From: a virus
Strand: one strand, 5' to 3'
Virus record (IMG/VR): IMGVR_UViG_3300021197_001931
Coordinates: 32,001-96,000 of that record
DNA: 64,000 nucleotides
In this document: positions 13,222-56,500 of the stretch, one piece after another
Layout: each line of letters starts with the position of its first letter
Numbering within the stretch: the first letter of the stretch is position 1
The notes under the pieces: generated by a model
Told to the model about the DNA's origin: nothing
The model's database searches: none
Seen by the model: the letters and a program-made list of their open reading frames with translations, nothing else
Made by a program: the position numbers and the translations under genes

Positions 13222-15018
13222 ATGACAAAAAATAAGGTGCCGATTAAATACACCAGCCGAGACTTTGAATCGATTAGAAGAGATTTGATCGATTACGCAA
13301 AGAGATATTATTCTGAAACGTTTAGAGACTTTAGTGATGCTTCGTTTGGGTCTCTAATGATAGATAGCGTTGCCTACATAGGCGATATCTTGTCTTTTTA
13401 CTTAGATTACCAGGTTAACGAAACGTTTCTAAACTCTGCCATCGAATACAACAACGTTATCAACATAGGCGAGCAAATGGGGTATAAATTTAAAGGCCCT
13501 GCATCCTCATACGGGGTGTGTGCGTTCTATGTAAAGATCCCCTCAAACACATCAGGAATTGGACCAGATACTTCCTATGTTCCAATATTAAAGAAGGGTG
13601 CCACTGTTTCCTCTACTGGAGGGGCGACCTTCATACTACTTGAGGATGTTGATTTTAATAACCCAACAAATGAAATTGTCAGCCTAGAACAAAATACAAC
13701 GACTAATCAAACAACTTTTTGGGGTATCCAGGCGTTTGGAAGTGTTGTCTCTGGAGAGTTGGGAACAGAAACTATAAATGTGGGCTCTTTTGAAAGATTT
13801 AAGAAGCTAGATTTAAAAGCTCTTGATATAGTTGAAATAATATCTGTAACAGATTCGGAAGGTAATGTTTACTACGAAGTCCCATTCTTGTCGCAAAACG
13901 TAATACACAGAGGTATTCCAAATCGTAATCAGGCAGATAATACTGCGCCCGCATCTATTATCAAGCCTTTTGTTGTTCCTAGGAGATTTGTTATAAAAAG
14001 AACATCTAGGAGGACTTCTCTCCAGTTTGGATATGGCTCTGAAGACGAGACCAACGAAGCATCTGTTGCAGAACCAACAAACGTTGTATTGCAAAAGATA
14101 GGAAAGAACTACATTAATGATACATCTTTTGATCCATCCAAGCTTTTAGATTCAGATAAATTTGGAGTTTCTCCGTCTAATACAACTTTAAGAATTAACT
14201 TTAGAAGAAATACAATCACAAATGCAAATGCATCAGCAGGATCAGTGACAAACATTGTTAGTTCAAGGGTGATCTTTCAAAATCCCACCTCTTTAAACAC
14301 AAACTCTAGATCCTCTGTTGCAAACTCTTTAGCAGTGACCAATTTAAAGCCAATATCTGGCGAATCATCAAACCCTGGATTAGATGAGCTTAGGCAACAA
14401 ATAATGGATAATTTTTCCGCTCAAGATAGAATAGTTACCGAGCAAGATTACAAAGCCTTTATATACACAATGCCAGGAAGGTTCGGGTCAATAACAAGAT
14501 GTGCTATCTATAGAGACACTGATGCGTTTAGAAGAAATTTGAATTTGTATGTCATTTCTTCTGATAAGGATGATTATCTTGTAGAGACAAATTCACAAGT
14601 AAAAGAAAATTTAAAAACTTGGATAGGCCAAAGTAAGATGATCAATGATACTATTGACATTTTGGATGCAAAGGTAGTTAATGTCCAATTAAGGTACACC
14701 CTCCTATCCTATAGCATTAGAGATTCACTAGAGCTTATTGTCAAAGCAAATAGCGCCCTCAAAAAAAGATTTTCTAGAAAATTTGACATAGGGGAAAACT
14801 TCGATTTAGATGAGGTAAGGAAAATTCTCACAAAACTACCAGGAGTTGATGGTGTAAGGAATGTTAGGCTGGTAAATAAGTTTGGTGGTGCGTATTCAAA
14901 CATTTCTTACAACACGGCTGAATATACTGATGCAGAAAACAGATTTGTTGAAGTGCCAAAGAATGTAGTATTGGAAATTAAATACTTAGATACCGATATA
15001 ATAGGAACGTTGAAATAA
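13222..15018 (+). CDS. baseplate wedge protein, T4 gp6/baseplate J-like
   Basis: YTSRDFESIR..L, DFSDASFG, AYIGDILSFYLDYQVNE and AQDRIVTEQDY motifs. Confidence 0.88.
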   Translation: MTKNKVPIKYTSRDFESIRRDLIDYAKRYYSETFRDFSDASFGSLMIDSVAYIGDILSFYLDYQVNETFLNSAIEYNNVINIGEQMGYKFKGPASSYGVCAFYVKIPSNTSGIGPDTSYVPILKKGATVSSTGGATFILLEDVDFNNPTNEIVSLEQNTTTNQTTFWGIQAFGSVVSGELGTETINVGSFERFKKLDLKALDIVEIISVTDSEGNVYYEVPFLSQNVIHRGIPNRNQADNTAPASIIKPFVVPRRFVIKRTSRRTSLQFGYGSEDETNEASVAEPTNVVLQKIGKNYINDTSFDPSKLLDSDKFGVSPSNTTLRINFRRNTITNANASAGSVTNIVSSRVIFQNPTSLNTNSRSSVANSLAVTNLKPISGESSNPGLDELRQQIMDNFSAQDRIVTEQDYKAFIYTMPGRFGSITRCAIYRDTDAFRRNLNLYVISSDKDDYLVETNSQVKENLKTWIGQSKMINDTIDILDAKVVNVQLRYTLLSYSIRDSLELIVKANSALKKRFSRKFDIGENFDLDEVRKILTKLPGVDGVRNVRLVNKFGGAYSNISYNTAEYTDAENRFVEVPKNVVLEIKYLDTDIIGTLK

Positions 15019-16667
15019 TGGCTATCAAAAGATATGTCGCTGCTAGCGACACAACTATTACAAATGCTTTTAAATCCAACTTGAGAACAAGAGGCACTGG
15101 TTCAAACATGGGTCGTGCCGATAGTCTTGAGGTGTTTTCCATTTATGGACAGGAGAGTTCTGGGTCTTCCGAATTATCTAGAGTTTTAGTGCATTTTGAC
15201 ACTGACGCCATATCAACAGATAGAACAAACGGGACAATACCTGTATCTGGCAGTGTTAGCTTTCATTTAAAAATGACAAATGCCGTGACCCCTTTTACCG
15301 TTCCTCGTAATTTTACGCTTGTTGCTGCCGCTGTTTCTGGGGCTAGTACCAGCATTCATGCCTCTATCGATTTTAATTGGCAAGAGGGTCACGGTATAGA
15401 TATGGACGGGTATACCGATATAACTCGTAATGGCGAAGGGTCCAACTGGATAAATATGGGCTCTAGCAGCACTTTAGGAGTTGTAAAGTGGGGAAATCAG
15501 GCCTCACCCACGGTGGGGGGCATTTATATTGATAATGCTAAATCTACATTTAAGCAATCTTTTGATACTGGTGTAGAAAACCTTGAAATTGATATCACTA
15601 CTTTAGTAGAACAGTGGGTAAACAGTGATGGAAACGTCTTAGGGACTATACCGAACTATGGACTTGGATTGCGATTATCAGCCTCGCAAGAAGCATATAT
15701 TGCAACGGCAGATGCAGCAACAAATGTTCCCGCCAATGATGGCGGTTCAAAAAGATCATATTACACAAAAAAATTCTTTGCAAGAAGTTCTGAGTTCTTT
15801 TACAGGCGCCCTATTATAGAGGCAAGATGGGACTCCGCAACGAAAGATGATAGAGGAAACTTTTATTATAGCAGTTCTTTGGCAACCGCTGATGAAAATT
15901 TAAATACTCTTTACTTGTATAACTATTTTAGAGGCCAGCTTAGAAATATACCAGAAATACAGGGAGGTAAAATATATGTCTCTATATTCTCTGGTTCGAT
16001 GTCAGACGAAGGCTCCGGTAGAGAGGCTCTGCATCTAGTTGCTGATGGAACCCATGTGTTGGCTGCCTCGCCTACTGTTGTTACGGGAGGTCATGTTTCT
16101 ACCGGCATATACTCTGCATCTTTTGCAATAACTGGGTCAAAACCTAAAGCACTAGAGACTTTGTATGATGTCTGGTTCAAGGGCGGAGTTGGCGAAATAA
16201 ACAATGCTTTGGATGCAACGGTGCAGTATCAAACTGGCACAATAGAGCCAAAAAGACTAATGCTGCATCCAGAGAATCCGTCCACCGCTTTTGTTTCAAA
16301 AATAACAAACTTAAGGCCATCATATTCAAATCTAGAGACCGCTAGATTTAGAGTTTTCACGAGACAAAAGAATTGGTATCCATCTATTTATACTAAGGCA
16401 GTTGCCACTGTGCCGCCATTTATAATAGAAAGTGGCTCATATTCAGTTACAAGAGTTGTTGACAATTATAGAGCTATTAGTTTTGGAACAGGTAGTGCTT
16501 TACATACTCAGATGTCCTTTGATGTTTCGGGCAGTTATTTTGACTTGGATATGAGTATGTTGGAGCCAGGCTATGCTTACAAGATCAAGCTTGCTTTCTA
16601 CAATGGTTCTATCGGCGGCTGGCAAGAACAAACGCAAGAATTTAAATTCAGAGTTGAAGAAGGTTAG
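15018..16667 (+). CDS. virion structural protein with DNRLRE/CBM96-like N-terminal domain
   Basis: DTTI...N.G....LEV...SRVLVHFD pattern and a beta-rich C-terminus; TAATG coupling to gp6. Confidence 0.55.
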   Translation: MAIKRYVAASDTTITNAFKSNLRTRGTGSNMGRADSLEVFSIYGQESSGSSELSRVLVHFDTDAISTDRTNGTIPVSGSVSFHLKMTNAVTPFTVPRNFTLVAAAVSGASTSIHASIDFNWQEGHGIDMDGYTDITRNGEGSNWINMGSSSTLGVVKWGNQASPTVGGIYIDNAKSTFKQSFDTGVENLEIDITTLVEQWVNSDGNVLGTIPNYGLGLRLSASQEAYIATADAATNVPANDGGSKRSYYTKKFFARSSEFFYRRPIIEARWDSATKDDRGNFYYSSSLATADENLNTLYLYNYFRGQLRNIPEIQGGKIYVSIFSGSMSDEGSGREALHLVADGTHVLAASPTVVTGGHVSTGIYSASFAITGSKPKALETLYDVWFKGGVGEINNALDATVQYQTGTIEPKRLMLHPENPSTAFVSKITNLRPSYSNLETARFRVFTRQKNWYPSIYTKAVATVPPFIIESGSYSVTRVVDNYRAISFGTGSALHTQMSFDVSGSYFDLDMSMLEPGYAYKIKLAFYNGSIGGWQEQTQEFKFRVEEG

Positions 16668-16669
16668 AG

Positions 16670-19600
16670 ATGAGCAGTAGTGATCAATTTAATTCAGGAC
16701 CTAAAACAATCTCAGCAAAAAGCATGGCAGATCTTGGGACTGATGCTGAATCTGCAGAAAATATCATAGCAAAAAAGAATAGGTTAAAAGTCTTTTTACC
16801 TCCAATTGATTATTCCACTGCTTCAAACTTTGCTGTTTATGGATCGGCTGAAAAATATTACACGGACGCAGTAAAAAGAGTTTATTTAGAGTATCCGTAT
16901 GATGGGTCCGAGAAGGAAATAAATGAATATATTTTAAGTTCCTCATTTCTTGATCAATACATTTTTAATAAAAGATATCCGAGAACAAATGGGTTCGCTA
17001 GATTTGCTACAAAAAACTCATGGGGGTCTCTTGTTGACTCATCCGGGGACTACGGAGCACCAGCTACAAGCTCATATGAATATATAACATTTTATGGTGG
17101 ACCAAACACATCTTACAACACCAATGAATCAATCGCCAGCGCGTTCTCTTCATCTCATAATCAAAACAATATTTTTGATTTATCAAAAAAGAGAGGGTCA
17201 AACCTTGCTTTAAATCCGACTAGTGGCTCTACAGTTGAGTTCTGGTTAAATAAGTCTGCGTTTTTGCCGGCATTGACTAAAAAAGAGGTCATCTTAGATA
17301 TATGGAATGGAAATGGTGTTCGCGCCGATTCTAGCTATGGCCGCTTTATGATAGAAATTAGTGCTAGTGGTCACGCTTCTCAAGACGCTACTGGTCGCGG
17401 CGGTCTAAATCCTTTTCGTTTAACATATCTGTCTGGCACAACTGGTATAAGTAATCAAGTAATTGGTTCTACTTCCTTGACCACATCTTCGATAGCAGAT
17501 AACACATGGGCGCATTACGCTATTACTGTTGTTTCATCTTCTGATGAAGGGTTGAACGCCAAATTGTATATAAATGGCGAATTAGATGATTCTAGGGATT
17601 ATGCAGCAATTGGGACCATGAATGAAGTAACTGGCGCATTTAGAGCCAATATCGGTTCTCTTATGTATGAGCCACCAATTGGAACTGATGCACCAAACAT
17701 AGGTTGGGGCAAACTTTCCGCCGATTTAGATGAATTCAGATATTGGAAGATAGAGCGGTCTGCCAAAGACATAGGGAGGAACTGGTTTACACAAGTGCGC
17801 GGAGGCACTAACACAGACGACGCGAACGTTGATCTTGGAGTATATTTTAAATTCAATGAGGGTGTTACTGGAGAAGACTCAGCAGATTCAACCGTTTTAG
17901 ATTATTCCGGTAGGATATCAAATGGTTCGTGGACTGGGTATGATAGCCAATCAAGAAATAGTGGGTCTGCAATTGTCCTATCTAGAGCAGCTTCGTCTGA
18001 ATTCAAGGATCCAATCATATATTCCAGCCATCCGGACGTGGAGTCTATTTTATCTGAATTGAAACTAGAGGGTAGGGTATATGATCAGGAAAACAACTCT
18101 TCAATAATAAACTCTATGCCAGCATGGATCGTTGAGAGTGACACAAATGGTGATTTACAAAATTTGGTGCAAATTGTAGCAAGCTATTTTGATAGGCTGC
18201 AGAACCAAATTAGAGAATTGCCAAGAATAAAAAATATAAGTTATTTAAGCTCTAGCTACGCCTCCCCCGCGTTTGCTTCAGAGTTGGTTAACAGCACGGG
18301 AATGTTTGCGTCTGAGATGTTTATTGATTCTAACATAATAGAAGAAATAATGTCTCGTGATGAAGATAGGAATTTTGATTTAGATTTTGATGAGATAAGA
18401 AATAGAATCTATCAAAACATTTATAATAACCTTATTTACATAAACAAGACAAAAGGGACAGAAAAGGCATTTAGGAATCTTATTCATTGTTATGGGGTAG
18501 ATGAAAGCCTCATAAGAATGAACATGTATGGGGACGAAGTAACATATGAACTAAAAGACAATTTTAGATCATCTGTTGTAGCGAAGAATTTAGTAGATTT
18601 CACCGGGCCAGGAAAAAACCAGGGAACCATTTTCCAAATGAGTGCCTCAAATAATAGTGATAGCGTCTCATTTATAACTGGTTCGGGAGCTACTGGTAAA
18701 GAAGACTTCATTGGCTTTACTTTGGAAAGTGAGATTCTTTTCCCTACGACCCCTGGTATCTGTGAGACAACAGCTAGCATAGGAAACCCAATAGTAACAT
18801 CGTCGTTGTTTGGAATGCATGGGGCAAATGGATATACTCCCGCTGACACTACTTGGCCCGAAAATGATTATGCTGATATTAGAGTTGTAGCCATTAGGCC
18901 TGGTGGGGATTTTAATGAAGATGACGCATATTTTATGGTTACCTCATCATTTGCGGGTCTCCCTACTTTAACAACCGACACTTACAAAGATGTCTACAAC
19001 AATAATAAATGGAATTTTGCTATAAGGATTATAAATGACAAGTATCCTTTAGGCGACGTTGTTACAGGGGTCTCAGGAAGTGATACAGGATATAAGTTGG
19101 AGTTTTATGGGGTCAACCAAACACTTGATGTCACAGAAGACGAATTTTATATAACTGGAGATATTAGCACACAAGATGCCGTAAATGTTTTAAGAAGCGA
19201 CAAGAGGGTTTTTGCTGGCGCCCACAGGACTAATTTTACAGGCTCAATACTCCAGTTTAGTGACGTAAAACTATCCAGTGTTAGGTACTGGGCCAATCAA
19301 ATCTCAAATGATGTTATAAAGGCACATGCTAGAGATACAAGTAATTACGGAACATTTTTCCCACATAGGAATGCGTTTTTAAACCAGTCGACAGCTATTG
19401 GGACATATATACCAGAAATAGAAACGTTAGCCCTTAATTGGAGCTTTGATAACCTGACAGGCTCAAGCCCCACTGGTAGACTAGAGGTGCTTGATAGTTC
19501 TTCTGGTTCACTAGAATTACAAGATAGGTATGGTTGGCTTGGAAAAGTAGTGAAAGCCCAACATACTGCAGTTGGGTTTGGTTTCCCATTTGATGATAAA

Positions 19601-22600
19601 AAAGTCATAAATAGAGAGTTTATCCATACAGCAAAACAATCATTACCAGAAAATGTGCAGTCATCAGAGATGGTTAACATATTGTCTCGTGATGATGAGG
19701 TTTTCACGAGAGACCAGAGGCCAGTAAATTATTATTTCTCTATTGAAAAAAGTATGTATCAGGTAATTTCTGACGAAATATTAAATACGTTTGCAACAAT
19801 AGTTGAATTCAACAACCTAATAGGAGACCCTGTTAACAGATACCGTCAAGATTATAAAATACTTGAAAAAGCTAGGAGTCTTTATTTTGAAGATGTGGAA
19901 AATGTTCCAAGTTTAGATAAATTCATTGATTTTTACAAATGGATTGATTCTTCTTTATCAAATTTCTTGTACCAGCTAATTCCCGCATCTGCTAAGTCGT
20001 CAAACCAAATTAGAACATTGATTGAAAGCCATATATTAGAGAGAAATAAATATTGGACTAAATTTCCAACGCTAGAGAAAAAGGTCCCTGGAGGGCCGTC
20101 TGGGCTAGTAACTGCAGCAGCATCATTGGGGGGAGGAACTAGCGATAGCCCATATCGTTCTCGCGATGGAGCGAATGCTGTACTCGACAGCGCCCCAATA
20201 CCATATGTTGAAACTAAACATGCGTCATATTGGAAAAAGAGAGCATCAAGAACTGAATCGCCGCTAGCGACTGGAATTACAGGCGTTGATAATGATAAGC
20301 AAACAATCTTAAATGCTTTACAGTCTGGGTACGATCGAGATATTAGTAGACCTTTTGTATTAAATAAAAAAGTTGATAAAACTTTTCATGGTGGTACAAA
20401 CTATCCGAAGATAAAAAAGAAAGATATTATTTTTAACGCAACATCCCCAGATGGGCCCCAAGCGACGTCTGGAGTTCCCCTAAATGTAATGCTTGTTAAC
20501 GATACTGAAGTTCAAAATTTTGAAAACATAGACGACATTTTAGATCCAAATAAGAAGAAATTTTATTCCTTCACCTGTAGAATACGCAGGGAAGACGAGA
20601 CTGGCCTACAATATGTAAACAATAACACATATACCTCGGTTCTAAAGGGAGACATAGCAGCCCCATTTAGATTAGTTAGTGGATCAATTACAACAGGATA
20701 TAACAAGTTAATAGCTGAAAACTTTAAAACTGGAACGATACTAACAAATTTGCACGAGGATACGTTTGTAACTAATGAGAGATCTTTACAGGGACCGTTT
20801 ACAGATGCACATGTTGGTGGCCATCAATCTAGGCACATAGACATAAACCGCTTCGATCCGCTGAAAGCTACAATAGACAAAATTGATAATCAGGAAACTC
20901 GACCGGAGGCATGGAGAATCCTAATAGGCACCGAATATGGGACTGATACGACTATGTTGGGTATAACAGGCCCAGACTACCCATATCCTGTGGGCCCGTA
21001 TCCGTATACTTTATTTAAAAAGGCGTCAAGATACAGAAACGTTGGTGCAAAAAGACCAGTAAACATTAGAAACATAAATTATACGACTGCGTCAAATGTA
21101 GTGGGCAATTACTCAAATAATTATGAAATATTTCAAACTGCTGGTAGAAGCATTAACAATAAATATTTTGTGGCCAATGAGGGTATCTCTTTGCCGACCT
21201 CCCCGCTTGATCTAAAAGCTGCACTTCCGCAAACAAACACTTTGTCCACCTTGCTTGGGTTAAAATTTGGATACACATCTTTGGGTAACTACTTTGGAGT
21301 CAAGCTGGCGTCCGATGGGGCTCTAGATGTCAGCAACAGGTATGAAATTTTAGGAAATTTTGATACGATTATGCGAACAGGGTCGGCTACAAAATCTATA
21401 TTTGTAAATAGGTTTTCCGCCCCAGGAGGCCCAGAAGTAAATACCGTAAGCTATTTAGATATCGCAGCGGCAGAAAAGTCAGCTTACAACGCTTTACCAT
21501 TTAGAAATCTATCCGTTCTTACCTCTGGTAGCGGTGAGGCAGCCGCAATACGAGCAGACAATTTAAATAGAAGAATTGGATTAAGAACTCTGCTGAAAGA
21601 GCATGCAGGTTCTTTCGGAACCGGGCTAAATGCAACAATCCCCACCGATGAATATGCATCAGTTCCTTCTTGGCACAAAGTAAATAGAAATCCTGTAAGG
21701 AGGATAGAGATCAATGGGGATAAGAGTCCATCAGACAATTCTTATGTGACCGGCACAATTTATGATAATGGGTTTATATCTCATGCAATACCGAGAGGTG
21801 ATCACCAGTATTCCTGGATATCTGCTTCAGCAGCTCCTTTTGAGAGAATCTATGGGCACGCTTATGGAGATAGCGTTATTTCAAGTTCTGTGGGAGGATT
21901 CCAGCAAGCCATATTGTTTTTGTCGCAAAGCCACAATACTGTTAGTGCTACGTCTGGTAAGCCAATAGTTGTAGATTTTGTTGGCTTAAACACTCTAATT
22001 GTTGAAAATATAGACGTAGAAAACAATATCGCAAGTGGAAGCTCTGGAAAAGGCCGATTGGGTGATTATATAAACATAGACTTTAAAGATGATAACTTGT
22101 CTACTACGTTTGCAGCTGGTGAGGTTTTAAACGCTTTATTGCTGCATAGGAATGGCCCATATGGAGTTAACACATGGACACAAATACGAGGGGGAGATAA
22201 AAAGCTAACCAGATTGTTGAGAAATAGAAACATAATTTCACACTTTAACAAAACAGAGTATGAGTACCCCTTAAAAACAGATAATATAAGGCCAAAGCAG
22301 CTAAGGGGAAAGCTGTTTAACTTTACCGAAGCTCCACTACAGAAAAAGTTTAATTCATTATCACATAATGTTTCTATAAAAACAACTACATCTGATGGTA
22401 GAGAAATAACCAAGAATGCTTCATTTGAAACAAGTTATGGAAACGCATTAAGCTACTTTAATAATGCTGAGTTGGATAATCTACTTGCTGATCAAACTGA
22501 GCAAATTAGTGTTCCCGCCTATGATAAAATAATAAATCTATACACTGGCGATCAAACTAATAACCCAGATAGTCCAATTGAAAAGTTTAACTCACTAACA

Positions 22601-25468
22601 TATAAAGAGAGAGTTTACCCATCTTCTATAAACGTTTTTTCCGCTAGTGTTAGAGTGAGGCAGGACTATAGCAATACTTTTTGGAGAAATGACAGAACCG
22701 GAAGAGCACGCTCAAATGTCTTCAGTTTTGGCAAAACTATATCAGACATTAGCATGTGGTCTCTAGACGCAGATACGGATTGGGCAACAAGGCAACCAAA
22801 TACTAGAGTTGGAACTAGCGGTGGCCCCGGTGTCTTGCAGAACAACTACTCACAGATACACAACGGCGATACAACTAAAATATTTGGATCGGTTCAGTAC
22901 GCAAGAAGGCACACGTTAGAAAATGTTCGATCTGTCGTTGGACCAGAGGGCTTGGATATACCCGCAACTGGAACCTATTATACGTCTCCCCTAGGATATA
23001 GGAGATCACACGATGAAGATAGGTTTGGAGGCCAAGCTCTATGGGAGGCCGCATCTCAAGCTGGAAAAACCCCATGGTATAATTCATATGATGACTATGT
23101 TCAAGAAATGAGACTAGCTGGTAAAGAATATTCAATTGTTCCAGAGTTTAGAATAAGCGACCACATAGAGTTGTACTACAAGGCAGATAATAGTAATTTC
23201 TTAGCTGATAGGCTTGATCTATTGAAAATAGAAGGAGGAGATAGCAACAAAAATAATAGTTCAAAACGCGATTTCTTTAAAACATATACAAACTCTGACT
23301 TTTTGAAATATTTTGGCGTTGTTCGCGATGACCTTAAAGATACTGGTTCTCCATCATCCATAAAACTCACATGCGGAGCTTTGTTAAAATTCCTTCCTTA
23401 TAATGGGTTTTATCCATCAGAACGAACGGTGGAAATTGCTTCAATGTTTTCTTCATCATATGGAAATTATCTAAACCTTGATCGAAAAGCTGGCATGGCA
23501 CCAGAAACGGCGTTTAGAACTTTTAACGCCCCAATGTTCGCTCCTGGTGTTATGTACAATACTATTAAGAGTGGAATAGCGGTAGACTACCCAGTGATGA
23601 CCTCTAGTTTCGATACACATGGTCTGGCATCGGCTGAGGATTCTTGTAGTTACATATCAGGAACGAACGGACTTGGGCTTTTTGGATATAGAGTTCCGTT
23701 TGAGTCCCTGGTGGAACCAGAGTCTTATTTATCTGATGTTGATCTTTTTGATATGGAAACACACCCAAGTGCAGCACTTAGTGTTACTGCTTCTTGGGCA
23801 GGTCAGGGCGGAAACTTGTATAAGATGATGGCCAGCAACTTCTTAGCAGAAAGTATAGATTTCTTCTTACCAGAGGGTAAATTAACAACTATAAGTTCAA
23901 AACCAGAGGATCAGTGGGAGTCTGCTGAAAAAGGAAGAGTGTATGCTGCGAGAGTTAAGATGCGCAAGACATATAATAAGTCTACGATAAGAACAGGATC
24001 GCAGGGATACTACAATCCACTAACTCCTGCGTCTCTATGGAGGCAGGCTGATTACCATGAGACATTCACTATGTACAGCCGTCCTAGCGCATTTGGGCCC
24101 CCCGTGGGTGGAGGAACACAAGGAACAGCTATTTACGGCTCTACCAACGGATTTAATCCTTGCTTTACTCCGCCTTACTATTATGGTGAATGTTGGGCTG
24201 ACATATTCTGGACAGCTGATAAAGCTGGAAATATTACTGCAGAGGATATCACAAATTCAAACAGTTTGGCGATCTCCTATATTAGAATTGGAAATGACTG
24301 GGCTCTGTCAAACGCCACAGGTAAGGGCACTGTGGGAGTGTCTTCAAGGAATACCTTACTTCATTCTGATAATATTGAGTCGAACTCAATGCAGTTAGAT
24401 GCGTCGTTAAATTTGCTAGCAAAAGCTGAGACTAAGAAAATAATTTATGACGCCAATACAGGGAAACCAACAATAGCGGAAGACGGTGGACAGGCAGTGT
24501 TAACTGTCCAAACAAAGTTTGAAACGCCTATGCTTAATTTTGCAGAAGTATCTGTCACCAATCCAACGCACGGAAGCGCCAGTATACCCAGGGGCATGTG
24601 GCACCAATACGCTCAGCCACCTTCATCGCCAGACATAGGGGTATTTTTGTCTATAAATGATGTACCAGATAACTATATTGAAAATGCATTAGGTGGCGTC
24701 CCCGCTTCCACTGGCTCATTAATCGATTTGCTTGGATTTAAGACAGAGGAACAAAGGCTTGGAGAGGTTTCGGAGACCAAAAAAATAAGTGAAGCTATCG
24801 TTGCGATACCATATATTGAAAAGGGTGGTGAAAGAAAGTTTTTTGAAATTTCTAGAAAAGTAGTAGACGAGGCGTTGCTAGACAACCCGACAGTTTCAAA
24901 TAGCGTAAAGCAGATGGTGGATTCTATGCAAAAATATATATTGCCACCAAAGCTTGACTTTGTAGAAAACCCTGATGCCGTCGACCCGTTTGCGATGTAC
25001 ATATTTGAATTTGAACATGTACTAGACCGGGATGATTTAGTTGATATTTGGCAAGGACTGCCACCAAAAATAGGACAGGCCTTTGATTCGGAGTCGACTC
25101 AGTTTACTTCTGGTAAAGGGCCACACACTTCTCAAATTATAAAAGAAGTTGAGATATCTCACCCATTGCTAGTTGGGGAATTATTAAATAAAGACAATAT
25201 ACCCAGCAAACTAAGATGGATGGTCTTTAAGATCAAGAAAAAAGCGCAAAAGAATTATTTTGACAAAGTCATAAAAGATCATGCAAGCAATGGGGGAAGA
25301 TTTGATAGTTCTAAATTAACCAATGTTGGTAGAATAAATTCTAGCAAAGGCTCTAGTCCAAAGTATACCTACAATTGGCCTTATGATTTCTTTTCTTTAG
25401 TAGAACTAGTTAAACTAGACGCAGAAATAGAGATATCAAACGACTTAGACAGCCAGGAAAAATCATAA
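16670..25468 (+). CDS. giant (2932 aa) baseplate wedge protein (gp7/P2 gpI-like core) with LamG/concanavalin-like domains
   Basis: LamG motifs TVEFW, WAHYAIT, LYING, LDEFRYW; wedge motif IYNNL.YI.KTKGTEKAFRNLI.CYG. Confidence 0.7.
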   Translation: MSSSDQFNSGPKTISAKSMADLGTDAESAENIIAKKNRLKVFLPPIDYSTASNFAVYGSAEKYYTDAVKRVYLEYPYDGSEKEINEYILSSSFLDQYIFNKRYPRTNGFARFATKNSWGSLVDSSGDYGAPATSSYEYITFYGGPNTSYNTNESIASAFSSSHNQNNIFDLSKKRGSNLALNPTSGSTVEFWLNKSAFLPALTKKEVILDIWNGNGVRADSSYGRFMIEISASGHASQDATGRGGLNPFRLTYLSGTTGISNQVIGSTSLTTSSIADNTWAHYAITVVSSSDEGLNAKLYINGELDDSRDYAAIGTMNEVTGAFRANIGSLMYEPPIGTDAPNIGWGKLSADLDEFRYWKIERSAKDIGRNWFTQVRGGTNTDDANVDLGVYFKFNEGVTGEDSADSTVLDYSGRISNGSWTGYDSQSRNSGSAIVLSRAASSEFKDPIIYSSHPDVESILSELKLEGRVYDQENNSSIINSMPAWIVESDTNGDLQNLVQIVASYFDRLQNQIRELPRIKNISYLSSSYASPAFASELVNSTGMFASEMFIDSNIIEEIMSRDEDRNFDLDFDEIRNRIYQNIYNNLIYINKTKGTEKAFRNLIHCYGVDESLIRMNMYGDEVTYELKDNFRSSVVAKNLVDFTGPGKNQGTIFQMSASNNSDSVSFITGSGATGKEDFIGFTLESEILFPTTPGICETTASIGNPIVTSSLFGMHGANGYTPADTTWPENDYADIRVVAIRPGGDFNEDDAYFMVTSSFAGLPTLTTDTYKDVYNNNKWNFAIRIINDKYPLGDVVTGVSGSDTGYKLEFYGVNQTLDVTEDEFYITGDISTQDAVNVLRSDKRVFAGAHRTNFTGSILQFSDVKLSSVRYWANQISNDVIKAHARDTSNYGTFFPHRNAFLNQSTAIGTYIPEIETLALNWSFDNLTGSSPTGRLEVLDSSSGSLELQDRYGWLGKVVKAQHTAVGFGFPFDDKKVINREFIHTAKQSLPENVQSSEMVNILSRDDEVFTRDQRPVNYYFSIEKSMYQVISDEILNTFATIVEFNNLIGDPVNRYRQDYKILEKARSLYFEDVENVPSLDKFIDFYKWIDSSLSNFLYQLIPASAKSSNQIRTLIESHILERNKYWTKFPTLEKKVPGGPSGLVTAAASLGGGTSDSPYRSRDGANAVLDSAPIPYVETKHASYWKKRASRTESPLATGITGVDNDKQTILNALQSGYDRDISRPFVLNKKVDKTFHGGTNYPKIKKKDIIFNATSPDGPQATSGVPLNVMLVNDTEVQNFENIDDILDPNKKKFYSFTCRIRREDETGLQYVNNNTYTSVLKGDIAAPFRLVSGSITTGYNKLIAENFKTGTILTNLHEDTFVTNERSLQGPFTDAHVGGHQSRHIDINRFDPLKATIDKIDNQETRPEAWRILIGTEYGTDTTMLGITGPDYPYPVGPYPYTLFKKASRYRNVGAKRPVNIRNINYTTASNVVGNYSNNYEIFQTAGRSINNKYFVANEGISLPTSPLDLKAALPQTNTLSTLLGLKFGYTSLGNYFGVKLASDGALDVSNRYEILGNFDTIMRTGSATKSIFVNRFSAPGGPEVNTVSYLDIAAAEKSAYNALPFRNLSVLTSGSGEAAAIRADNLNRRIGLRTLLKEHAGSFGTGLNATIPTDEYASVPSWHKVNRNPVRRIEINGDKSPSDNSYVTGTIYDNGFISHAIPRGDHQYSWISASAAPFERIYGHAYGDSVISSSVGGFQQAILFLSQSHNTVSATSGKPIVVDFVGLNTLIVENIDVENNIASGSSGKGRLGDYINIDFKDDNLSTTFAAGEVLNALLLHRNGPYGVNTWTQIRGGDKKLTRLLRNRNIISHFNKTEYEYPLKTDNIRPKQLRGKLFNFTEAPLQKKFNSLSHNVSIKTTTSDGREITKNASFETSYGNALSYFNNAELDNLLADQTEQISVPAYDKIINLYTGDQTNNPDSPIEKFNSLTYKERVYPSSINVFSASVRVRQDYSNTFWRNDRTGRARSNVFSFGKTISDISMWSLDADTDWATRQPNTRVGTSGGPGVLQNNYSQIHNGDTTKIFGSVQYARRHTLENVRSVVGPEGLDIPATGTYYTSPLGYRRSHDEDRFGGQALWEAASQAGKTPWYNSYDDYVQEMRLAGKEYSIVPEFRISDHIELYYKADNSNFLADRLDLLKIEGGDSNKNNSSKRDFFKTYTNSDFLKYFGVVRDDLKDTGSPSSIKLTCGALLKFLPYNGFYPSERTVEIASMFSSSYGNYLNLDRKAGMAPETAFRTFNAPMFAPGVMYNTIKSGIAVDYPVMTSSFDTHGLASAEDSCSYISGTNGLGLFGYRVPFESLVEPESYLSDVDLFDMETHPSAALSVTASWAGQGGNLYKMMASNFLAESIDFFLPEGKLTTISSKPEDQWESAEKGRVYAARVKMRKTYNKSTIRTGSQGYYNPLTPASLWRQADYHETFTMYSRPSAFGPPVGGGTQGTAIYGSTNGFNPCFTPPYYYGECWADIFWTADKAGNITAEDITNSNSLAISYIRIGNDWALSNATGKGTVGVSSRNTLLHSDNIESNSMQLDASLNLLAKAETKKIIYDANTGKPTIAEDGGQAVLTVQTKFETPMLNFAEVSVTNPTHGSASIPRGMWHQYAQPPSSPDIGVFLSINDVPDNYIENALGGVPASTGSLIDLLGFKTEEQRLGEVSETKKISEAIVAIPYIEKGGERKFFEISRKVVDEALLDNPTVSNSVKQMVDSMQKYILPPKLDFVENPDAVDPFAMYIFEFEHVLDRDDLVDIWQGLPPKIGQAFDSESTQFTSGKGPHTSQIIKEVEISHPLLVGELLNKDNIPSKLRWMVFKIKKKAQKNYFDKVIKDHASNGGRFDSSKLTNVGRINSSKGSSPKYTYNWPYDFFSLVELVKLDAEIEISNDLDSQEKS

Positions 25469-35544: not shown

Positions 35545-36774
35545 ATGCCATATTATAAATTCAAACAAAGCGATATTTACTTTAATCGCATAAAAGCACA
35601 CCCGCAAAAGAAGTTTTTTGTCTACAACTCTTCAATCTTTTTAGATAATCAATCCAAAATTAGTGGAACTTTTACAGGAAGTATACCAAACGCACCTACG
35701 GGATATGTCAGCCTGTATGAGCTTAATGTTGACAGACACGACCTCAGCATGGGTCCAGCCCCAGCTTTAATAAATCCGTTTGTTGAGCGTGATTCAAACC
35801 TAACTGCATTTCGAACTATAAGCACTTCAAGTTTTTATAGGACAGAAATAGGAGAAAGTGTAACGGGGTCTTACCCTCTTACTGCAAGCATAGAGAGAGA
35901 TTTATTTGAAGCTTGTCCTGTCGGTGAAAGCCGCAATCGAGCAAATAAAATAAATGCTTTAAAGACAACATTGGATTATTATACTCCACTAAGCAATCAG
36001 TATGAGTTTAGTTCTTCAAACGGAAATTGGGATAAAGGCCAGCAGGCCATAAATTTAATTAGCATTCCGTCAATCTTTTACGGCTCTACAATAAAAAAGG
36101 GAACAGTTGACTTAAAGTTCTATATAACTGGAACCTTGATAGGTGAGCTTCGAGATGAGAACTACAATGGCGAACTAATACAAGTCGGGCCACCAGGGAG
36201 TAATGGGTCAGGAAGCGTAGCTGGGGTTGCTCTATATGATGAGGGGTTCCTAATGCTAACAGGAAGTTGGCCACTAGAGCACGCTGGTTATGATTATACA
36301 AACGCCAACAAGGCTTCAAAGTCTTCATGGTTATATTTCAATGTTGGGGCAAACGATAATATACCCGCGCACCCCGGTAATACAACAAACCCGGCGATAT
36401 CAAGACTATCCGCCAGCTATGACTCTCAGTTTTCTGGCACCAATTACGTTCCCGTTAAGACAATGTTGGCTCATGCTCCAAGAAATGAGCTTAATTACTC
36501 AAGTAACCCATCATACATAGACCAGTCTAGCGCAGGCGCATTTGTTTTTTATACTAGTTCTGCTGGATATATAGAAAATGATAAACAAGGAATTAAAAAT
36601 ACTATAAAATCACCGTATGTAAGCCCTACTGGTAGTTACATGCCTCAAACTTTCATATCAAAGGTTGGAATTTTTGATAAAGATAAGAATTTGATTGCTA
36701 TAGCTAAGGTTGCAACTCCGGTTAAAAAAACAGAAGAGAGAGAGCTTACGTTTAAATTAAAACTGGATTTTTAA
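35545..36774 (+). CDS. virion structural protein, paralogue of 34393
   Basis: Same shared motifs (IKKGTVDL, NYSSNPSY, VGIFDKDKNLIAIAKVATPVKK). Confidence 0.65.
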   Translation: MPYYKFKQSDIYFNRIKAHPQKKFFVYNSSIFLDNQSKISGTFTGSIPNAPTGYVSLYELNVDRHDLSMGPAPALINPFVERDSNLTAFRTISTSSFYRTEIGESVTGSYPLTASIERDLFEACPVGESRNRANKINALKTTLDYYTPLSNQYEFSSSNGNWDKGQQAINLISIPSIFYGSTIKKGTVDLKFYITGTLIGELRDENYNGELIQVGPPGSNGSGSVAGVALYDEGFLMLTGSWPLEHAGYDYTNANKASKSSWLYFNVGANDNIPAHPGNTTNPAISRLSASYDSQFSGTNYVPVKTMLAHAPRNELNYSSNPSYIDQSSAGAFVFYTSSAGYIENDKQGIKNTIKSPYVSPTGSYMPQTFISKVGIFDKDKNLIAIAKVATPVKKTEERELTFKLKLDF

Positions 36775-48687: not shown

Positions 48688-48696
48688 GTATTAAAA

Positions 48697-49296: not shown

Positions 49297-49297
49297 A

Positions 49298-51307: not shown

Positions 51308-51315
51308 GATCTTAA

Positions 51316-51750: not shown

Positions 51751-51760
51751 CGGAAATAAA

Positions 51761-52021: not shown

Positions 52022-52023
52022 AA

Positions 52024-52497
52024 ATGGCAAATCCTTCAGACACTATGTCCGTACTGAAAAACTATAGAGTTGGTCTAAATAATGTTGGTTCTTATCAAGT
52101 AGCAGGAAAGCCCTACATTACAGGGTCAGATGCAGGACCAGTCGGTGGTGAAAGTTATTATGCATTTCCATCAGTAACAAACAACATAACAGTTACAAAC
52201 TATTCAGTGTTAGATACAGCACTTCCAAATCAGCGACAATGTGAGGAAATAAGGGTTCATTTTAATTCAACTGGCTCTAGTGCAGTGGTCGCTGGTCACC
52301 ACTATTATATATTATCCGGAACTGTTCAATCAATTGACTTAAACGTAAAGTGTAAAGAAATTTATATTTCGTCTCCTGATGCAGGCTCCCCAAGAAAATA
52401 TAGAATTGCAGCTAGCCTTACACAAATTCCTGTTGAGAGAATGTATGCGTTGACTGGATCTGGTTTAACAACTGATGTCCGTGGCCCGCATAGCTAA
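52024..52497 (+). CDS. small beta-rich virion protein (putative)
   Basis: SD AGGAG; TCTAATTA late-like motif upstream; three TGS motifs. Confidence 0.55.
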   Translation: MANPSDTMSVLKNYRVGLNNVGSYQVAGKPYITGSDAGPVGGESYYAFPSVTNNITVTNYSVLDTALPNQRQCEEIRVHFNSTGSSAVVAGHHYYILSGTVQSIDLNVKCKEIYISSPDAGSPRKYRIAASLTQIPVERMYALTGSGLTTDVRGPHS

Positions 52498-52511
52498 TTT
52501 AGGAGTAACTA

Positions 52512-54605
52512 ATGCCAGATTATGGATGGGCATATATAAACTTAGATGTTCTAAAAACTATTCAAGGGCCGTCTGAGGTAACTGGCACAATTGCCATTAT
52601 AATAGATGATACGACCTTTTCTGGTTCTCAGTTCCTGGCCTATGCAACGGCTTCTAATAAAGTTGGCATTGGTTTAGATTTCCCAACTGTTGTGCCAACT
52701 CACCAGTTACATGTTTCTGCTAGTGCTGGTGAAGAAGTCGCAGCTAACTTCACGGGCGACATCCTCGTTTCAGGGTCTGCTTTTATTTCTGGCACCCTAA
52801 GAGTAGAAAATATCCAAGCGAAAACTGTAATTTCTTCTAGCCATTTGCTGGTCAGGGATCCAGTTATAGGGCTTGGATTTGGTGATGGGTCTAATCAAAC
52901 TGGATCGGTTGGCGATCGAGGCATCATTTTTGGATTAGCAGGCAATTTAAACCAAGCGATTATTTGGGACCAAAGTTCTGGTAGTTTTATTGTGGGTAAA
53001 GTCGGTTCTCAGGGCCCAGACAGTGACTCATACACAATGGCTGACGCGGATTTGTCAACCTTTAAAGTCGGCGTATTAACAGCATCCGCAGGTCTTGTCA
53101 CAAACACGGTATCAGCATCTCACAATGTAAGTATTGTTGGAAATGTTGCTACAGAGGGCACGTTAAGCGTATCTGGATCAACAGTTTTGGGTCACGCTAG
53201 TTCAAATAACACAACCATAACTGGGCAAACTATAAATATACCCAATGTGGCAGCTGGAACTGATAATACTGTAGTTATCTACAATGGAAGTACACTTCTC
53301 ACTGACGAAATAGATTCAAAAGTTTGGGACGGTAACTTAATAGATGTTACAGGAACTCCGTCAGATAATCAAGTGGTAACTTTTGCAGACGCTGACACAG
53401 TACAGGGAGAATCAAATCTAACGTTTGATGGTTCTACTTTAACAGTTGGTAATGATATTTCGGTCGCTGGAAAATTAGTACATACGGGAGATACAGACAC
53501 CCATGTAAAATTTGATGCTGATAAGATAGAGCTTATTGCCGGAAATGAAACACTATTAACGTTAACAGAAGATTCTCAAGACATAGTAATCGTGGGCGAC
53601 GGCGGTGATGTAGACTTCCAAGTAAAAACAAGCGGAAACAACAATACCATTTTTGCACAAGGAAGCACAGATAGAGTTGGATTAGGCACAAGTTCACCAA
53701 ATGCAGTGCTAGAAATAAGCAGATCTGTTGGAATGGCCAAGCCAATGTTCCAAGTAGTCCATGGAGGCACACATAATAATATTTCTGATGGTAAGCCCCT
53801 TATTATCGTGACTGGTTCTACCCCCGATGGATTTACTGGGGTTGTTGGAATTAATACCGAGAACCCCAAGGGGGTCTTGCATGTGGCTGGTGCAGGAAAG
53901 ACGGCGTTGATAGCTAACGCTGAAGGGAAGGTCATAATAGGAAAAGATACCAGCACAATAGGGTCGACCTTTGAAGTGCAATCAGACCTAAATACCGATG
54001 CTATAGCTAAGTTTGTTAATACACAAAATGTAACTGGTGATGAGGGCCCATTTGTAATCTTCCATATTTCCGGTTCTTCTGATGGTGGAGGACACTTTGG
54101 AAGCCACCACTCTGGTAGTAACATGCACCTATCAGGGACCTCTTTCCTTACGGCTGTGACTGCTTCGGTAGGGTTTAGCGGGTCTATTGGTAACTTTGGA
54201 ACTCTCAACATTAATAGCGTTGCGATTACTCAGGGAACTGTCGACGGGACTACAATCGGCGGAACAACCCCAGGTGTGGTCAATCAGACTGCTGGAACTG
54301 TTAAATATCGTTCTAAAGACAATGGAGACAGCCCATATAGCGTTGTTGCAAGCGATTATATAATTGGCGTTGACACAAGTGGTGGCGCAGTGCAAATAAA
54401 CCTACAGGCCGCTAGTTCCGCTGGCACTGGAAGAATGTTAATAATTAAGGATATTAAAGGAACTGCTGGAGCAAACAACATCACAATCGAGCCGAACGGT
54501 TCTGAGTTTATTGACAGGCAGGCTAATTTAATTATAGCTGCTAACTCTGGATCTGTCATGCTATTCTGTGATGGATCTGAGTATTTTATTGCAGGAACAA
54601 GATAA
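52512..54605 (+). CDS. fibre protein (tail or head fibre)
   Basis: VGIG/VGLGTSSP/VGINTENP...LHV fibre repeats, GESNLTFDGSTL, and a C-terminal domain shared with 56687 and 57279. Confidence 0.75.
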   Translation: MPDYGWAYINLDVLKTIQGPSEVTGTIAIIIDDTTFSGSQFLAYATASNKVGIGLDFPTVVPTHQLHVSASAGEEVAANFTGDILVSGSAFISGTLRVENIQAKTVISSSHLLVRDPVIGLGFGDGSNQTGSVGDRGIIFGLAGNLNQAIIWDQSSGSFIVGKVGSQGPDSDSYTMADADLSTFKVGVLTASAGLVTNTVSASHNVSIVGNVATEGTLSVSGSTVLGHASSNNTTITGQTINIPNVAAGTDNTVVIYNGSTLLTDEIDSKVWDGNLIDVTGTPSDNQVVTFADADTVQGESNLTFDGSTLTVGNDISVAGKLVHTGDTDTHVKFDADKIELIAGNETLLTLTEDSQDIVIVGDGGDVDFQVKTSGNNNTIFAQGSTDRVGLGTSSPNAVLEISRSVGMAKPMFQVVHGGTHNNISDGKPLIIVTGSTPDGFTGVVGINTENPKGVLHVAGAGKTALIANAEGKVIIGKDTSTIGSTFEVQSDLNTDAIAKFVNTQNVTGDEGPFVIFHISGSSDGGGHFGSHHSGSNMHLSGTSFLTAVTASVGFSGSIGNFGTLNINSVAITQGTVDGTTIGGTTPGVVNQTAGTVKYRSKDNGDSPYSVVASDYIIGVDTSGGAVQINLQAASSAGTGRMLIIKDIKGTAGANNITIEPNGSEFIDRQANLIIAANSGSVMLFCDGSEYFIAGTR

Positions 54606-55456
54606 TGACAATACTGACTGGCTCATTGACCAGTCTGACGCTAAGCGGCAGTAGTCTGGTACAAAGAAAAAATACTGGTGCTGAGGTCCTCATGGATCTT
54701 GATTTTACCAAACTTCCAAATCAAAGTTTGACTGATGATGCAACTAATAGTATTGGAGGATTTCCATTTTATATAGATAAAGTAAGTTCGCCTGAATGGG
54801 TGAATATTGTCAATGGTACCGGATTAGCTTTCCGTGGAACACAAAATAAGCTTTTAAGAGTTTTTTTAGATCTAACTGGAACGTTTCCACAAATAGACAC
54901 AACAGATAGAATAAGAGTGGTAGCTCAATATTTTGTTACTACATTTGGTGGCGTTGGTGGCCCGGGGAATACGATATACGCTGGGCTTTCTAATGGGTAT
55001 GTCGCTGCTGACGAGGGGACACAAACATACGATTCTTATGTGTTTTCTTATGCTGAGCGAAACAACTCTGTTGTATCGGATAAATTTATTTTCGGTGCAA
55101 TACACTCAATGGGAGGCGGTACTGCTGTGAATACTCACAACGTAGTAAGCCCAGCTAGCGCAGCGCCTACTATAGTAAGATTAGAATTAGACGGAGTTCA
55201 AGATAATTGGTATACAGCCGGTGATTTTAATATATCTTCTTCTAATGGTTTGACAGATTTCCCAACCCCCGGTGGTATAACTTATAGAACTAGACAACGA
55301 ATGCAGACTAACACAAGTATGCCAAGGCTAACAAACGATTATGTGGCCCCATTTACAGGCAGCTTCCACGTATGGCTGCAATTCTCTCCTAATATTTCAG
55401 AGATGTCAGCTTCGATACAGAGGCTAAGCATATTTAGATATGGAGTGGACCAATGA
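54605..55456 (+). CDS. putative adhesin/receptor-binding domain protein, copy 1
   Basis: Beta-rich; N- and C-termini clearly homologous to 55634. Confidence 0.55.
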   Translation: MTILTGSLTSLTLSGSSLVQRKNTGAEVLMDLDFTKLPNQSLTDDATNSIGGFPFYIDKVSSPEWVNIVNGTGLAFRGTQNKLLRVFLDLTGTFPQIDTTDRIRVVAQYFVTTFGGVGGPGNTIYAGLSNGYVAADEGTQTYDSYVFSYAERNNSVVSDKFIFGAIHSMGGGTAVNTHNVVSPASAAPTIVRLELDGVQDNWYTAGDFNISSSNGLTDFPTPGGITYRTRQRMQTNTSMPRLTNDYVAPFTGSFHVWLQFSPNISEMSASIQRLSIFRYGVDQ

Positions 55457-55632
55457 AAACAGCCAACATAAGAATACAAAAGATTTGTGAATCTTTAAAT
55501 TCTGCTTTATCTGATGCGGCGTTTTTTCAAATTATAATTTCGTTGCAAGAATTTGACAATATTACCACCGATAACGCACGTATTGCTTTAGTTGATCAGA
55601 TTATTGCTGCCGTAAACGAGGCAAGAGGATAA
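55453..55632 (+). CDS. 59-aa helical protein, paralogue of 56500 (not in ORF track)
   Basis: ATGA overlap and SD GGAG. MKTANIRIQKICESLNSALSDAAFFQIIISLQEFDNITTDNARIALVDQIIAAVNEARG aligns with ITLEELDNIATDEQKLALWQQISDAITAARG. Confidence 0.8.
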   Translation: MKTANIRIQKICESLNSALSDAAFFQIIISLQEFDNITTDNARIALVDQIIAAVNEARG

Positions 55633-55633
55633 A

Positions 55634-56500
55634 ATGAGTTTTTCAATTACGGGCAGTAGTTTGGTATTAGGAGATGATAAAGGTGCTTCTGAGGTTGTAT
55701 TTGATTTAAATTTTAGAGAAATGGTGAACCAATCTTTATCTGCTGGTGTTAATACCCTAAGCGATGGAACAAAAATATTTGTAACCCTAGTTGATAGTCC
55801 CCCTTGGGCATCTATTGTTAATGGACAGGGCCTAAGCGCTCGATGTCTCACAAATGACCAAGTAATAGTTTCGTTGGATTTAACTGGAGCCATAAACGCT
55901 GGGAAAACCGCCACTGACCCTGGTCGGTTTAACCCAAGAGATAGATTAAGAATGATAGCAGAAATTAGTGGTACCACGATTTCTGGTGCTGGGGCCAACG
56001 GAGATGGTTTTTACTCAACAATTGGAAATGGGATAACAACAGAAGTAGGAACTGGAGATTTTTCTGGAACGCCTATTTCCACCGAGGGGGTGTTTGCAGC
56101 CATTCACGTAGATTCAAACAATGGTAATAAACTAACACCTAGAATTTGGTCTAGAATAGGCGGCACATATGCCGAAAAGGACTATACTGGAGTTGACGAG
56201 AGGGTCGTCACACCCGGAGTTACGCATGTGGTGTTAGAAACAGATATTTTTGAAGGATCTTGTTGGACAAGATATAAGACTGGCTCAACCTCACTAGACC
56301 CACATGTTGGCGGATTACCAGTCCCTACAGAGCTAACAACTTATGGTAGAGCAAGACTTCTCGCTAGTGGCGGAGTAGTTGTGGACAATAGCCCTTTTAC
56401 CGGATCTGTTATAGGAAATCTTACCTTTTGGGCACCGGTTACCGAGGTATCTGCTTCCTTAACAAGATTGACATTACTAAGATATGGAAATATTAAATAA
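55634..56500 (+). CDS. putative adhesin/receptor-binding domain protein, copy 2
   Basis: Paralogue of 54605: GSSLV, D.F....NQSL, SP.W..IVNG.GL, PFTGS, SAS..RL...RYG. Confidence 0.55.
   Translation: MSFSITGSSLVLGDDKGASEVVFDLNFREMVNQSLSAGVNTLSDGTKIFVTLVDSPPWASIVNGQGLSARCLTNDQVIVSLDLTGAINAGKTATDPGRFNPRDRLRMIAEISGTTISGAGANGDGFYSTIGNGITTEVGTGDFSGTPISTEGVFAAIHVDSNNGNKLTPRIWSRIGGTYAEKDYTGVDERVVTPGVTHVVLETDIFEGSCWTRYKTGSTSLDPHVGGLPVPTELTTYGRARLLASGGVVVDNSPFTGSVIGNLTFWAPVTEVSASLTRLTLLRYGNIK

Follow-up and report, generated by a model that had tools for sequence, protein, structure and literature searches.

A surface tripeptide motif and a tandem GT4 gene pair suggest virus-encoded O-glycosylation of virions in a clade of aquatic T4-like phages

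Introduction

The BAHT heptosyltransferases Aah and TibC glycosylate serines at multiple sites in the cytoplasm, acting on the beta-structured surface proteins AIDA-I and TibA. In the GtfA/GtfB system, two tandem GT-B genes prime Ser/Thr in the cytoplasm before variable accessory transferases act, and GtfB is the non-catalytic subunit. The chlorovirus PBCV-1 glycosylates its capsid protein Vp54 in the cytoplasm with virus-encoded glycosyltransferases (GTs; B736L and A546L), independently of the endoplasmic reticulum and at atypical sequons. GtfA/GtfB is the O-GlcNAc transferase of streptococcal and staphylococcal serine-rich repeat (SRR) proteins (PMC7661464). Che8 and related mycobacteriophages encode soluble GTs that put shielding glycans on virion subunits, reportedly at the C-termini of capsid and tail-tube subunits (Freeman et al. 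2023, as cited in PMC12619734 and PMC11256854). Here we describe a candidate system of this kind in a window of 64,000 nucleotides, bases 32001-96000 of the 161,719-base virus record IMGVR_UViG_3300021197_001931, whose own genome has a CheckV completeness of ~72%. Its elements are a tripeptide motif, [S/T]-[G/A]-S (that is, SGS, TGS, SAS or TAS), on a subset of virion proteins and two tandem GT4 genes, GT4a and GT4b, in a glycan cluster that reaches into the window from upstream.

The window genes include a gp55-like sigma factor, a gp6-like wedge and a gp23-like capsid protein, with the neck and sheath genes just past the window end. The phage is an aquatic T4-like phage within a T4-superfamily clade that has many relatives. 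Among cultured phages, those nearest to it by capsid protein (41-46% identity) are immuto of Flavobacterium, Mel-JY01 of Microcystis and RM378 of Rhodothermus; the uncultured LR756508 has 50% capsid identity to it. With the Immutovirus/Mel-JY01/RM378 group the phage also shares the GT4-GT4 tandem and the motif excess on virion proteins; it differs in standing on a separate, mostly uncultured branch and in having a far larger glycan cluster. No description of the motif was found in the literature searched, including that on the Immutovirus/Mel-JY01/RM378 phages.

The locus resembles each of the described systems in part. In mycobacteriophages the glycans sit at subunit C-termini, whereas the candidate sites here are many internal tripeptides on about 10 proteins, with none on the tail tube, and the phage carries a 22-kb cluster for donor synthesis. 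Chlorovirus B736L is the best PDB match of the pair; however, chlorovirus glycans are N-linked (mostly at NTxT) with no tandem pair described, and the motif here has no Asn. With GtfA/GtfB the locus shares two adjacent GT-B genes whose products are predicted to form a complex. Unlike that system, in which one subunit is non-catalytic, both subunits here keep the EX7E signature, and the targets would be folded virion proteins with dispersed sites and not one SRR stalk. No GtfA/GtfB homology appeared in PDB profile searches or in the Foldseek top 50, and no serine-rich-repeat adhesin or accessory SecA2/SecY2 was found among the cluster genes. Like the BAHT systems, the cluster has a GT9 and heptose-type donor enzymes, with no TibC-type match in Pfam scans of its proteins; the GT9 gene, the only one in the cluster, occurs in 0 of 65 related loci and therefore cannot account for a lineage-wide motif. 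The system is probably best filed as a candidate form of virus-encoded virion glycosylation, which by analogy would work like GtfA/GtfB priming while lying outside that family.

Results

The motif is enriched on a subset of virion proteins

A preliminary description had counted the motif by hand in the window's proteins, and all of its figures were reproduced exactly. With the expectation taken from 1000 shuffles of each protein, the excess persisted after correction for composition, with z of 3.1-7.2 for eight named window proteins. The motif-rich genes, all on the + strand, begin with the outer baseplate protein that follows gp6 (549 aa, 15018..16667; 10 motifs vs 2.0 expected, z 5.8) and a 2932-aa baseplate-region protein (16670..25468; 23 vs 7.2, z 5.9). 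A lineage-specific baseplate protein of 376 aa (34393..35523) has 6 motifs vs 1.4 expected and its 409-aa paralogue (35545..36774) 7 vs 1.2. In the head/fibre gene block, a 157-aa protein (52024..52497) has 3 motifs, all TGS, vs 0.5 (p 0.014), and a 697-aa fibre/spike (52512..54605) has 15 vs 3.1 (z 7.2). Two putative virion proteins of 283 aa (54605..55456; p 0.011) and 288 aa (55634..56500; p 0.016) have 4 each. The gp23-like major capsid protein (60765..62579, +) has 3 vs 1.3, alone not significant (p 0.13), and all three lie at residues 166-296, inside the hypervariable insertion (~residues 160-320). Past the window end, the neck gene (genome 96214-97485) has 3 motifs and the tail sheath gene (genome 98925-101864) has 7 vs 2.5 expected.

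The low counts given earlier for other proteins were likewise borne out, with 2 motifs in the protein that starts at 5476, none in 26483 and 29968, and 1 each in primase, Mre11-Rad50, terminase and portal. The gp6-like inner baseplate wedge (13219..15018, +) is Ser-rich yet motif-free, and the Ser-rich beta proteins of the same particle, a set picked for lacking the motif, have 3 motifs vs ~19 expected. In the enriched set TGS, SGS and SAS outrank every other tripeptide, a descriptive ranking since the set was picked on the motif. The motif had been said to follow V/I/L/F often, and 41 of 75 motifs are so placed (25% expected). The 85 motif sites comprise 75 different 9-mers, and codon use within motifs equals the background, so the feature is one of the protein and not a DNA repeat. 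A DNA-level repeat was thus ruled out by codon use, and a composition artefact by the survival of the excess on shuffling and its replication in related loci. N-x-S/T showed no excess in the motif-rich proteins.

The 736-aa Ala/Ser/Gly-rich fibre (57279..59489, +) had been proposed as an internal control. Its lack of motifs stands (0 vs 4.7 expected), but it is a poorer control than proposed: its five homologues have 24 motifs vs 18 expected. Because two of the five are enriched (7 vs 2.8 and 8 vs 2.2), we treat it as a protein-specific exception. The gene sits where the GC content of the window is highest (~52% at 58001-60000 vs ~39% elsewhere), and its product shares a C-terminal domain family, phrog_20556, with the motif-rich 52512.

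Motif sites occur on different folds

Pfam and PHROG named none of 15018, 16670, 26483 and 29968. The LamG label given earlier was not confirmed, 16670 having neither a Pfam nor a PHROG match. The DNRLRE-like label gained support, as a DNRLRE/CBM-like N-terminal domain in 15018 is indicated by PF06848 on one homologue and a CBM fold match. The architecture of 15018 is a CBM/DNRLRE-like jelly roll plus Ig/FN3-like domains, and its sites are distributed over both of these different fold types. In its AlphaFold model (predicted local distance difference test, pLDDT, 82), about 7 of the 10 sites fall in loops or hairpin turns, where they had been expected, and 3 in strands or strand ends. The claim that the motif spans unrelated folds was upheld by its presence in the capsid insertion, neck, sheath, jelly roll, Ig domains and fibre; this spread rules out a single repeat fold as its cause.

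Homologues of these proteins carry the motif as well. The 102 homologues of 15018 have 10.7 motifs per protein, 5.15x the expected number. At their sites T and S swap at position 1, position 2 is G or A (sometimes S), and Ser is kept at position 3. The conservation of this third Ser is 0.84 vs 0.59 locally, and that of other Ser is 0.53, while the sites themselves come and go between proteins. The 16670 homologues gave 8/2.3 (observed/expected) in immuto and 17/3.6 in a related genome (G006), the 34393 family has 4-7 motifs in seven genomes that bear the GT4 pair, and 11 homologues of 52024 have 34 motifs vs 7 expected.

The motif recurs in surface proteins of related phages

For a replication without selection on the motif, we used the dereplicated proteins of 240 capsid-flanking clade loci (three sets), with 160 Kyanoviridae-like (cyanophage) loci as control, and called significance at p<0.005 among proteins of >=300 aa. 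In the clade loci the motif was found at 2.5-2.8x expected and 17-20% of long proteins were significant, as compared with an unspecific 1.36-1.41x and 0-1.8% in the control loci. By tripeptide, SGS reached 3.4-3.6x, TGS 2.8-3.4x, SAS 1.7-2.1x and TAS 1.5-2.2x; the near variants NGS, DGS, AGS, GGS and SGN stayed at 1.0-1.4x, and SGT and TGT at 1.0-1.6x. In motif-rich proteins, V/I/L/F is preferred just before the motif (-1) and F/L/Y just after it (+1), where Pro is at 0.2x. An ice-binding function of the TxT type was rejected, as TGT/TAT is much less enriched than TGS/SGS and the thermophilic RM378 carries the motif. G001, G002, G003 and L048 had looked like motif-free relatives at their capsid-flank loci and proved motif-rich elsewhere in the genome.

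The excess follows position on the particle, the outward-facing capsid, neck, sheath, baseplate and fibre proteins holding the motif at three to five times the chance level. Across 78 capsid proteins, 278 motifs vs 79 expected fall in the hypervariable insertion, which from its position we take to be the outer-surface insertion domain of T4 gp23, and 35 vs 51 in the conserved core. By family, the motif is at 4.2-4.8x in the neck, 2.7-3.4x in the sheath and 2.7-3.1x in the capsid. The tail tube has 1 motif vs 14 expected in the closest set, the portal falls below expectation in two of the three sets (3/18 and 6/18), and orthologues of gp6, gp25, terminase, protease and primase have 0-1 motif in nearly every genome; gp6 has none in 8 of 8 pair-bearing genomes where an orthologue was found, this phage included. 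These results show that the motif is a selected, sequence-specific, protein-level feature of surface virion proteins.

Separately, Ser is the last residue of 28 of 78 capsid homologues, 60765 among them (often in ...GATS), which recalls the C-terminal glycosylation in mycobacteriophages. A 4590-aa protein of one relative (G002:C1:126219-139991) has 269 motifs among Gly-Thr-Ser repeats.

A tandem GT4 pair is the invariant core of the glycan cluster

The preliminary description had proposed the motif as a sequon and had seen no GT in the window, expecting GTs upstream of base 1. At least seven lie directly upstream, in a contiguous glycan cluster of ~22 kb (genome 10739-33125) that ends at window base 1125. 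The part inside the window (1..1125, +) holds the end of a UDP-Glc dehydrogenase gene (to 257), which starts 597 bases before the window, and an NDP-sugar epimerase gene (250-1125) upstream of the late sigma gene, both as identified before. The GTs are three of GT4, the core pair included (GT4a, genome 10739-12007; GT4b, 11983-13281), three of GT2 and the GT9. The other genes encode methyltransferases, an RpiB-nucleotidyltransferase fusion, a PfkB kinase, an aldolase II, a cupin, a transaldolase, NeuA, NeuB, SDR epimerases, DUF4910, a deacetylase, the UDP-Glc dehydrogenase and a CDP-glycerol-transferase-like protein. All cluster proteins are soluble, with no transmembrane segment in any of them, and no flippase, polymerase or exporter was seen among the cluster genes.

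In 65 related loci GT4a and GT4b were present in 64-65, the first GT2 in 52 and the other cluster genes in 0-25, which makes GT4a and GT4b the invariant core of the cluster. The UDP-Glc dehydrogenase (5/65) and the NDP-sugar epimerase (25/65) are sporadic and hence variable accessories; their distribution, like that of the GT9, rules them out as core enzymes. GT4a and GT4b are neighbours in 87 of 88 loci, and the remaining locus is truncated by a contig end. Three genes that lie before the pair, namely phoH, a gene for a 257-aa protein and a PD-(D/E)XK nuclease gene, are as conserved as the pair itself.

Both proteins fit the GT4 (GT-B, retaining) family in having a GT-B fold and the EX7E signature, which is invariant in each. 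GT4a has a predicted GT-B fold (pLDDT 90), and its best solved match is chlorovirus B736L (PDB 3OY2; profile E 2e-14, Foldseek rank 1, 20% identity), which is likewise the best match of GT4b (E 4.5e-7). The GT4a family is large, with 7616 matches among 8000 candidates scored. ESMFold2 gave the GT4a-GT4b heterodimer a score of 0.88, and the best of three controls 0.00. Of 80 solved complexes 58 attained the mark applied, as did 2 of 110 mismatched pairs. The model runs share >=96% of contacts with a partner pLDDT of >=88, and the interface sets the GT4a C-terminal residues 415-422 against GT4b residues 253-261. The prediction is thus of a GT4a-GT4b heterodimer in which both catalytic EX7E signatures are intact.

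Some observations concern the cluster and its flank. The 257-aa protein (genome 8903-9676) is encoded three genes ahead of GT4a and occurs in every one of the 65 loci that have enough flank; its sole hit is a weak, sub-cut-off ATLF metallopeptidase-like match over 31 residues, and it could be a member of the system. GT4a is split into two adjacent open reading frames near the Rossmann-domain boundary in Mel-JY01 (L099:23441-24932) and in G003:C1:62690-64209. GT4b has a C-terminal extension of ~250-290 aa, possibly a fused neighbouring GT2, in about one quarter of related loci (for example L093:4455-6485, L116:9965-12106 and L136:10648-12738). The RpiB isomerase fused to a cytidylyltransferase-like domain (L002:4162-5040, genome 19162-20040) adjoins the PfkB kinase, aldolase II, cupin and transaldolase genes, a heptose-type donor pathway without GmhA.

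The motif and the pair are co-distributed

Co-distribution was measured as the observed/expected ratio (O/E) of [ST]GS in Ser/Gly-rich proteins, with immuto, Mel-JY01 and B3 read in part. Strong enrichment was found in 9 of 10 genomes with the pair, the O/E being 2.5-4.0 in this phage, immuto, Mel-JY01, RM378 (whose GT4b is diverged), G001, G002, G003, G005 and G006; the exception is G018. The main comparisons without the pair gave 1.25 for LR756508, 1.60 for G020, 1.23 for G019, 1.44 for cyanophage controls and 0.86 for the B3 structural region. Five complete outgroup genomes have neither GT4a nor GT4b. TJE1 and S-CBS4, which carry distant single GT4a-like genes, were considered and showed no clear enrichment.

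LR756508 has GT4a and is missing GT4b. None of its 474 proteins was significant, its sheath gave 1/1.0 (observed/expected) and its 15018 orthologue 0/0.3. In a four-marker tree rooted on B3, Xoo-sp13 and LR756511, with G019, TJE1 and S-CBS4 left out, LR756508 branches from within the clade, and the approximately unbiased test rejects monophyly for the pair-bearers (p 6e-80). LR756508 represents one natural joint loss of GT4b and the motif.

A promoter-like motif precedes virion genes

The gp55-like late sigma factor gene (2110..2811, +; phrog_234, E 5.6e-4) lies between the glycan cluster and the tail genes. A promoter-like motif, ACTAnTTA, occurs 34 times on the + strand and 4 times on the - strand, ahead of many virion genes and also ahead of phoH (genome 7365), at the head of the phoH-nuclease-GT operon. 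Intergenic copies of ACTA[A/T/G]TTA at window 12775, 13192, 33383, 33422, 41381, 59564 and 63484 stand 26-68 bases upstream of gene starts, and around capsid genes in related loci ACTAnTTA was counted 345 vs 16. ACTA[A/T/G]TTA is a candidate late promoter for sigma 2110.

Discussion

These results lead us to favour, as somewhat the better bet, the reading that the motif is an acceptor sequon for cytoplasmic O-glycosylation by the phage GT4 heterodimer. The full motif would be hydrophobic-[S/T]-[G/A]-S-hydrophobic, and Pro would seldom follow it. The GT4a/GT4b dimer would move a first sugar from a nucleotide-sugar donor onto it, presumably late in infection. This sugar would most probably go to the third Ser, which is nearly invariant, and the first Ser/Thr would serve as a recognition hydroxyl, although the reverse is possible. 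The hypervariable downstream transferases and methyltransferases may then extend and decorate this sugar with heptose-like, nonulosonate and uronic-acid sugars, and the outcome would be a strain-specific glycan coat over the capsid, neck, sheath, outer baseplate and some fibres. The wider proposal, to which we give about even chances, is that a widespread aquatic T4-superfamily clade has its own general sequon-directed protein O-glycosylation, in which a doubly catalytic GT4 heterodimer primes [S/T]-[G/A]-S sites on ~10 surface proteins, thousands of them in each particle, and serotype-like glycans are built on these sites by a hypervariable island.

Several observations weigh against these proposals. 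G018 has an intact pair and an [ST]GS O/E of only 1.72, near that of its pair-less sister G020 (1.60, in a genome whose completeness is not established), and the contrast between the two is uninformative or mildly contrary. LR756508 and G020 retain a mild excess in a few proteins (3/0.7, 9/3.2 and 8/2.4), and the capsid proteins of the control phages are themselves at 1.6x. Co-occurrence of pair and motif is mostly shared ancestry, with one clean independent contrast. The hydrophobic -1/+1 flanks are equally expected of an amphipathic surface beta-strand, and ACTAnTTA is gene-proximal upstream of the pair in just 20 of 51 related loci. B736L, the best solved match, has no proven activity or acceptor (PMC9614988). 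The co-occurrence anticipated in the preliminary description was thus found in that the motif follows the GT4 pair with one nested loss, qualified by ancestry and by G018; likewise the glycosylation reading is partly supported, its sequence-level predictions holding and the pair-bearing G018 staying near background.

The motif could instead reflect a structural preference, in which small residues cap exposed beta-strands and beta-solenoid faces or form a turn there; it would have been fixed in the lineage and passed on together with the virion module, the glycan cluster being a co-inherited passenger. The periodicity hydrophobic-out-small-out-hydrophobic would agree with this, as would the 3 of 10 sites of 15018 in strands or at strand ends, the 1.4-1.6x baseline of control phages, the little contrast between G018 and G020, and the abundance of near-repeat copies in fibres (53 in an immuto spike). 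However, the isosteric turn variants SGN, SGD, NGS, DGS and AGS are not enriched, the motif extends across capsid insertion, neck, sheath, jelly roll, Ig and fibre folds, and its positions turn over within a 31-40%-conserved capsid insertion. Equally Ser-rich beta proteins of the particle are depleted (in the set picked for lacking the motif), and the nested LR756508 is at background, its sheath and 15018 orthologue included. We consider a structural preference, the main rival reading, unlikely.

It is more doubtful still that another enzyme or chemistry modifies the motif, whether a transferase of the host or a phospho-, methyl- or acyl-transferase of the phage. The cluster does contain methyltransferases and the CDP-glycerol-transferase-like gene, phoH, the 257-aa protein and the PD-(D/E)XK nuclease match the conservation of the pair, and G018 combines the pair with a weak motif; but the remaining transferase genes of the cluster are sporadic. 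As to a host enzyme, the listed hosts are very different (Flavobacterium, Rhodothermus and Microcystis). The general O-glycosylation sequon of Bacteroidota is D-(S/T)-(A/I/L/V/M/T), which does not fit the motif, and DGS is not enriched. Comparably improbable is that the GTs act on phage DNA or the host cell surface and are unlinked to the motif. It is well known that some phage GTs glycosylate hydroxymethylated bases and that others convert serotype (PMC12619734), and GT4a weakly matches the Pfam GT4-conflict family. TET/JBP, ThyA/dCMP-hydroxymethylase-family and C5-methylase genes were not found in this phage, a negative from a genome ~72% complete, which leaves a DNA target some room; TET/JBP was not found in five relatives either. 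The DNA of pair-bearing immuto, analyzed by liquid chromatography with UV and mass spectrometric detection (LC-UV-MS), contained dA, dC, dT and fdPreQ1 with no glycosylated base reported (10.1101/2023.04.13.536721), a result that speaks against DNA as a target of the pair, and the lack of visible export machinery in the cluster argues against a host-surface polymer.

GT islands are common in aquatic phages and are usually read, without evidence, as genes for DNA protection or host-surface modification; the present work gives one such pair of conserved enzymes a defined candidate acceptor motif. If protein O-glycosylation by the pair is correct, the motif would reveal the surface topology of virions in their sequences, and abundant phages would wear variable, probably anionic sugar coats, with a bearing on adsorption, decay, grazing and proteomic detection. 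The pair would then be a new portable sequon-specific O-glycosyltransferase, compact and cytoplasmic, whose three-residue sequon (and thermostable version in RM378) could be useful for glycoengineering. The cultured immuto_2-6A, RM378 and Mel-JY01 make the standing question directly testable.

Other features of the genomes

Unlike G002 with its motif-bearing Gly-Thr-Ser repeats, G018 (C1:106839-197194) has abundant Pro-Ser-Pro/Pro-Thr-Pro mucin-like repeats, perhaps a different acceptor signal. A purA-like gene lies near a phrog_9582 dehydrogenase gene (L004:16057-17049 and 18103-19134); Z-base DNA was rejected, as this gene retains the PurA Asp, which we take to be the residue that tells PurA from purZ, and so is not purZ. 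A 1149-aa DNA polymerase (phrog_405; L004:12030-15479, genome 124030-127479) has a length that suggests family C. Polymerases appear to be swapped within the clade, immuto having family A, Mel-JY01 family B and this phage the phrog_405 polymerase.

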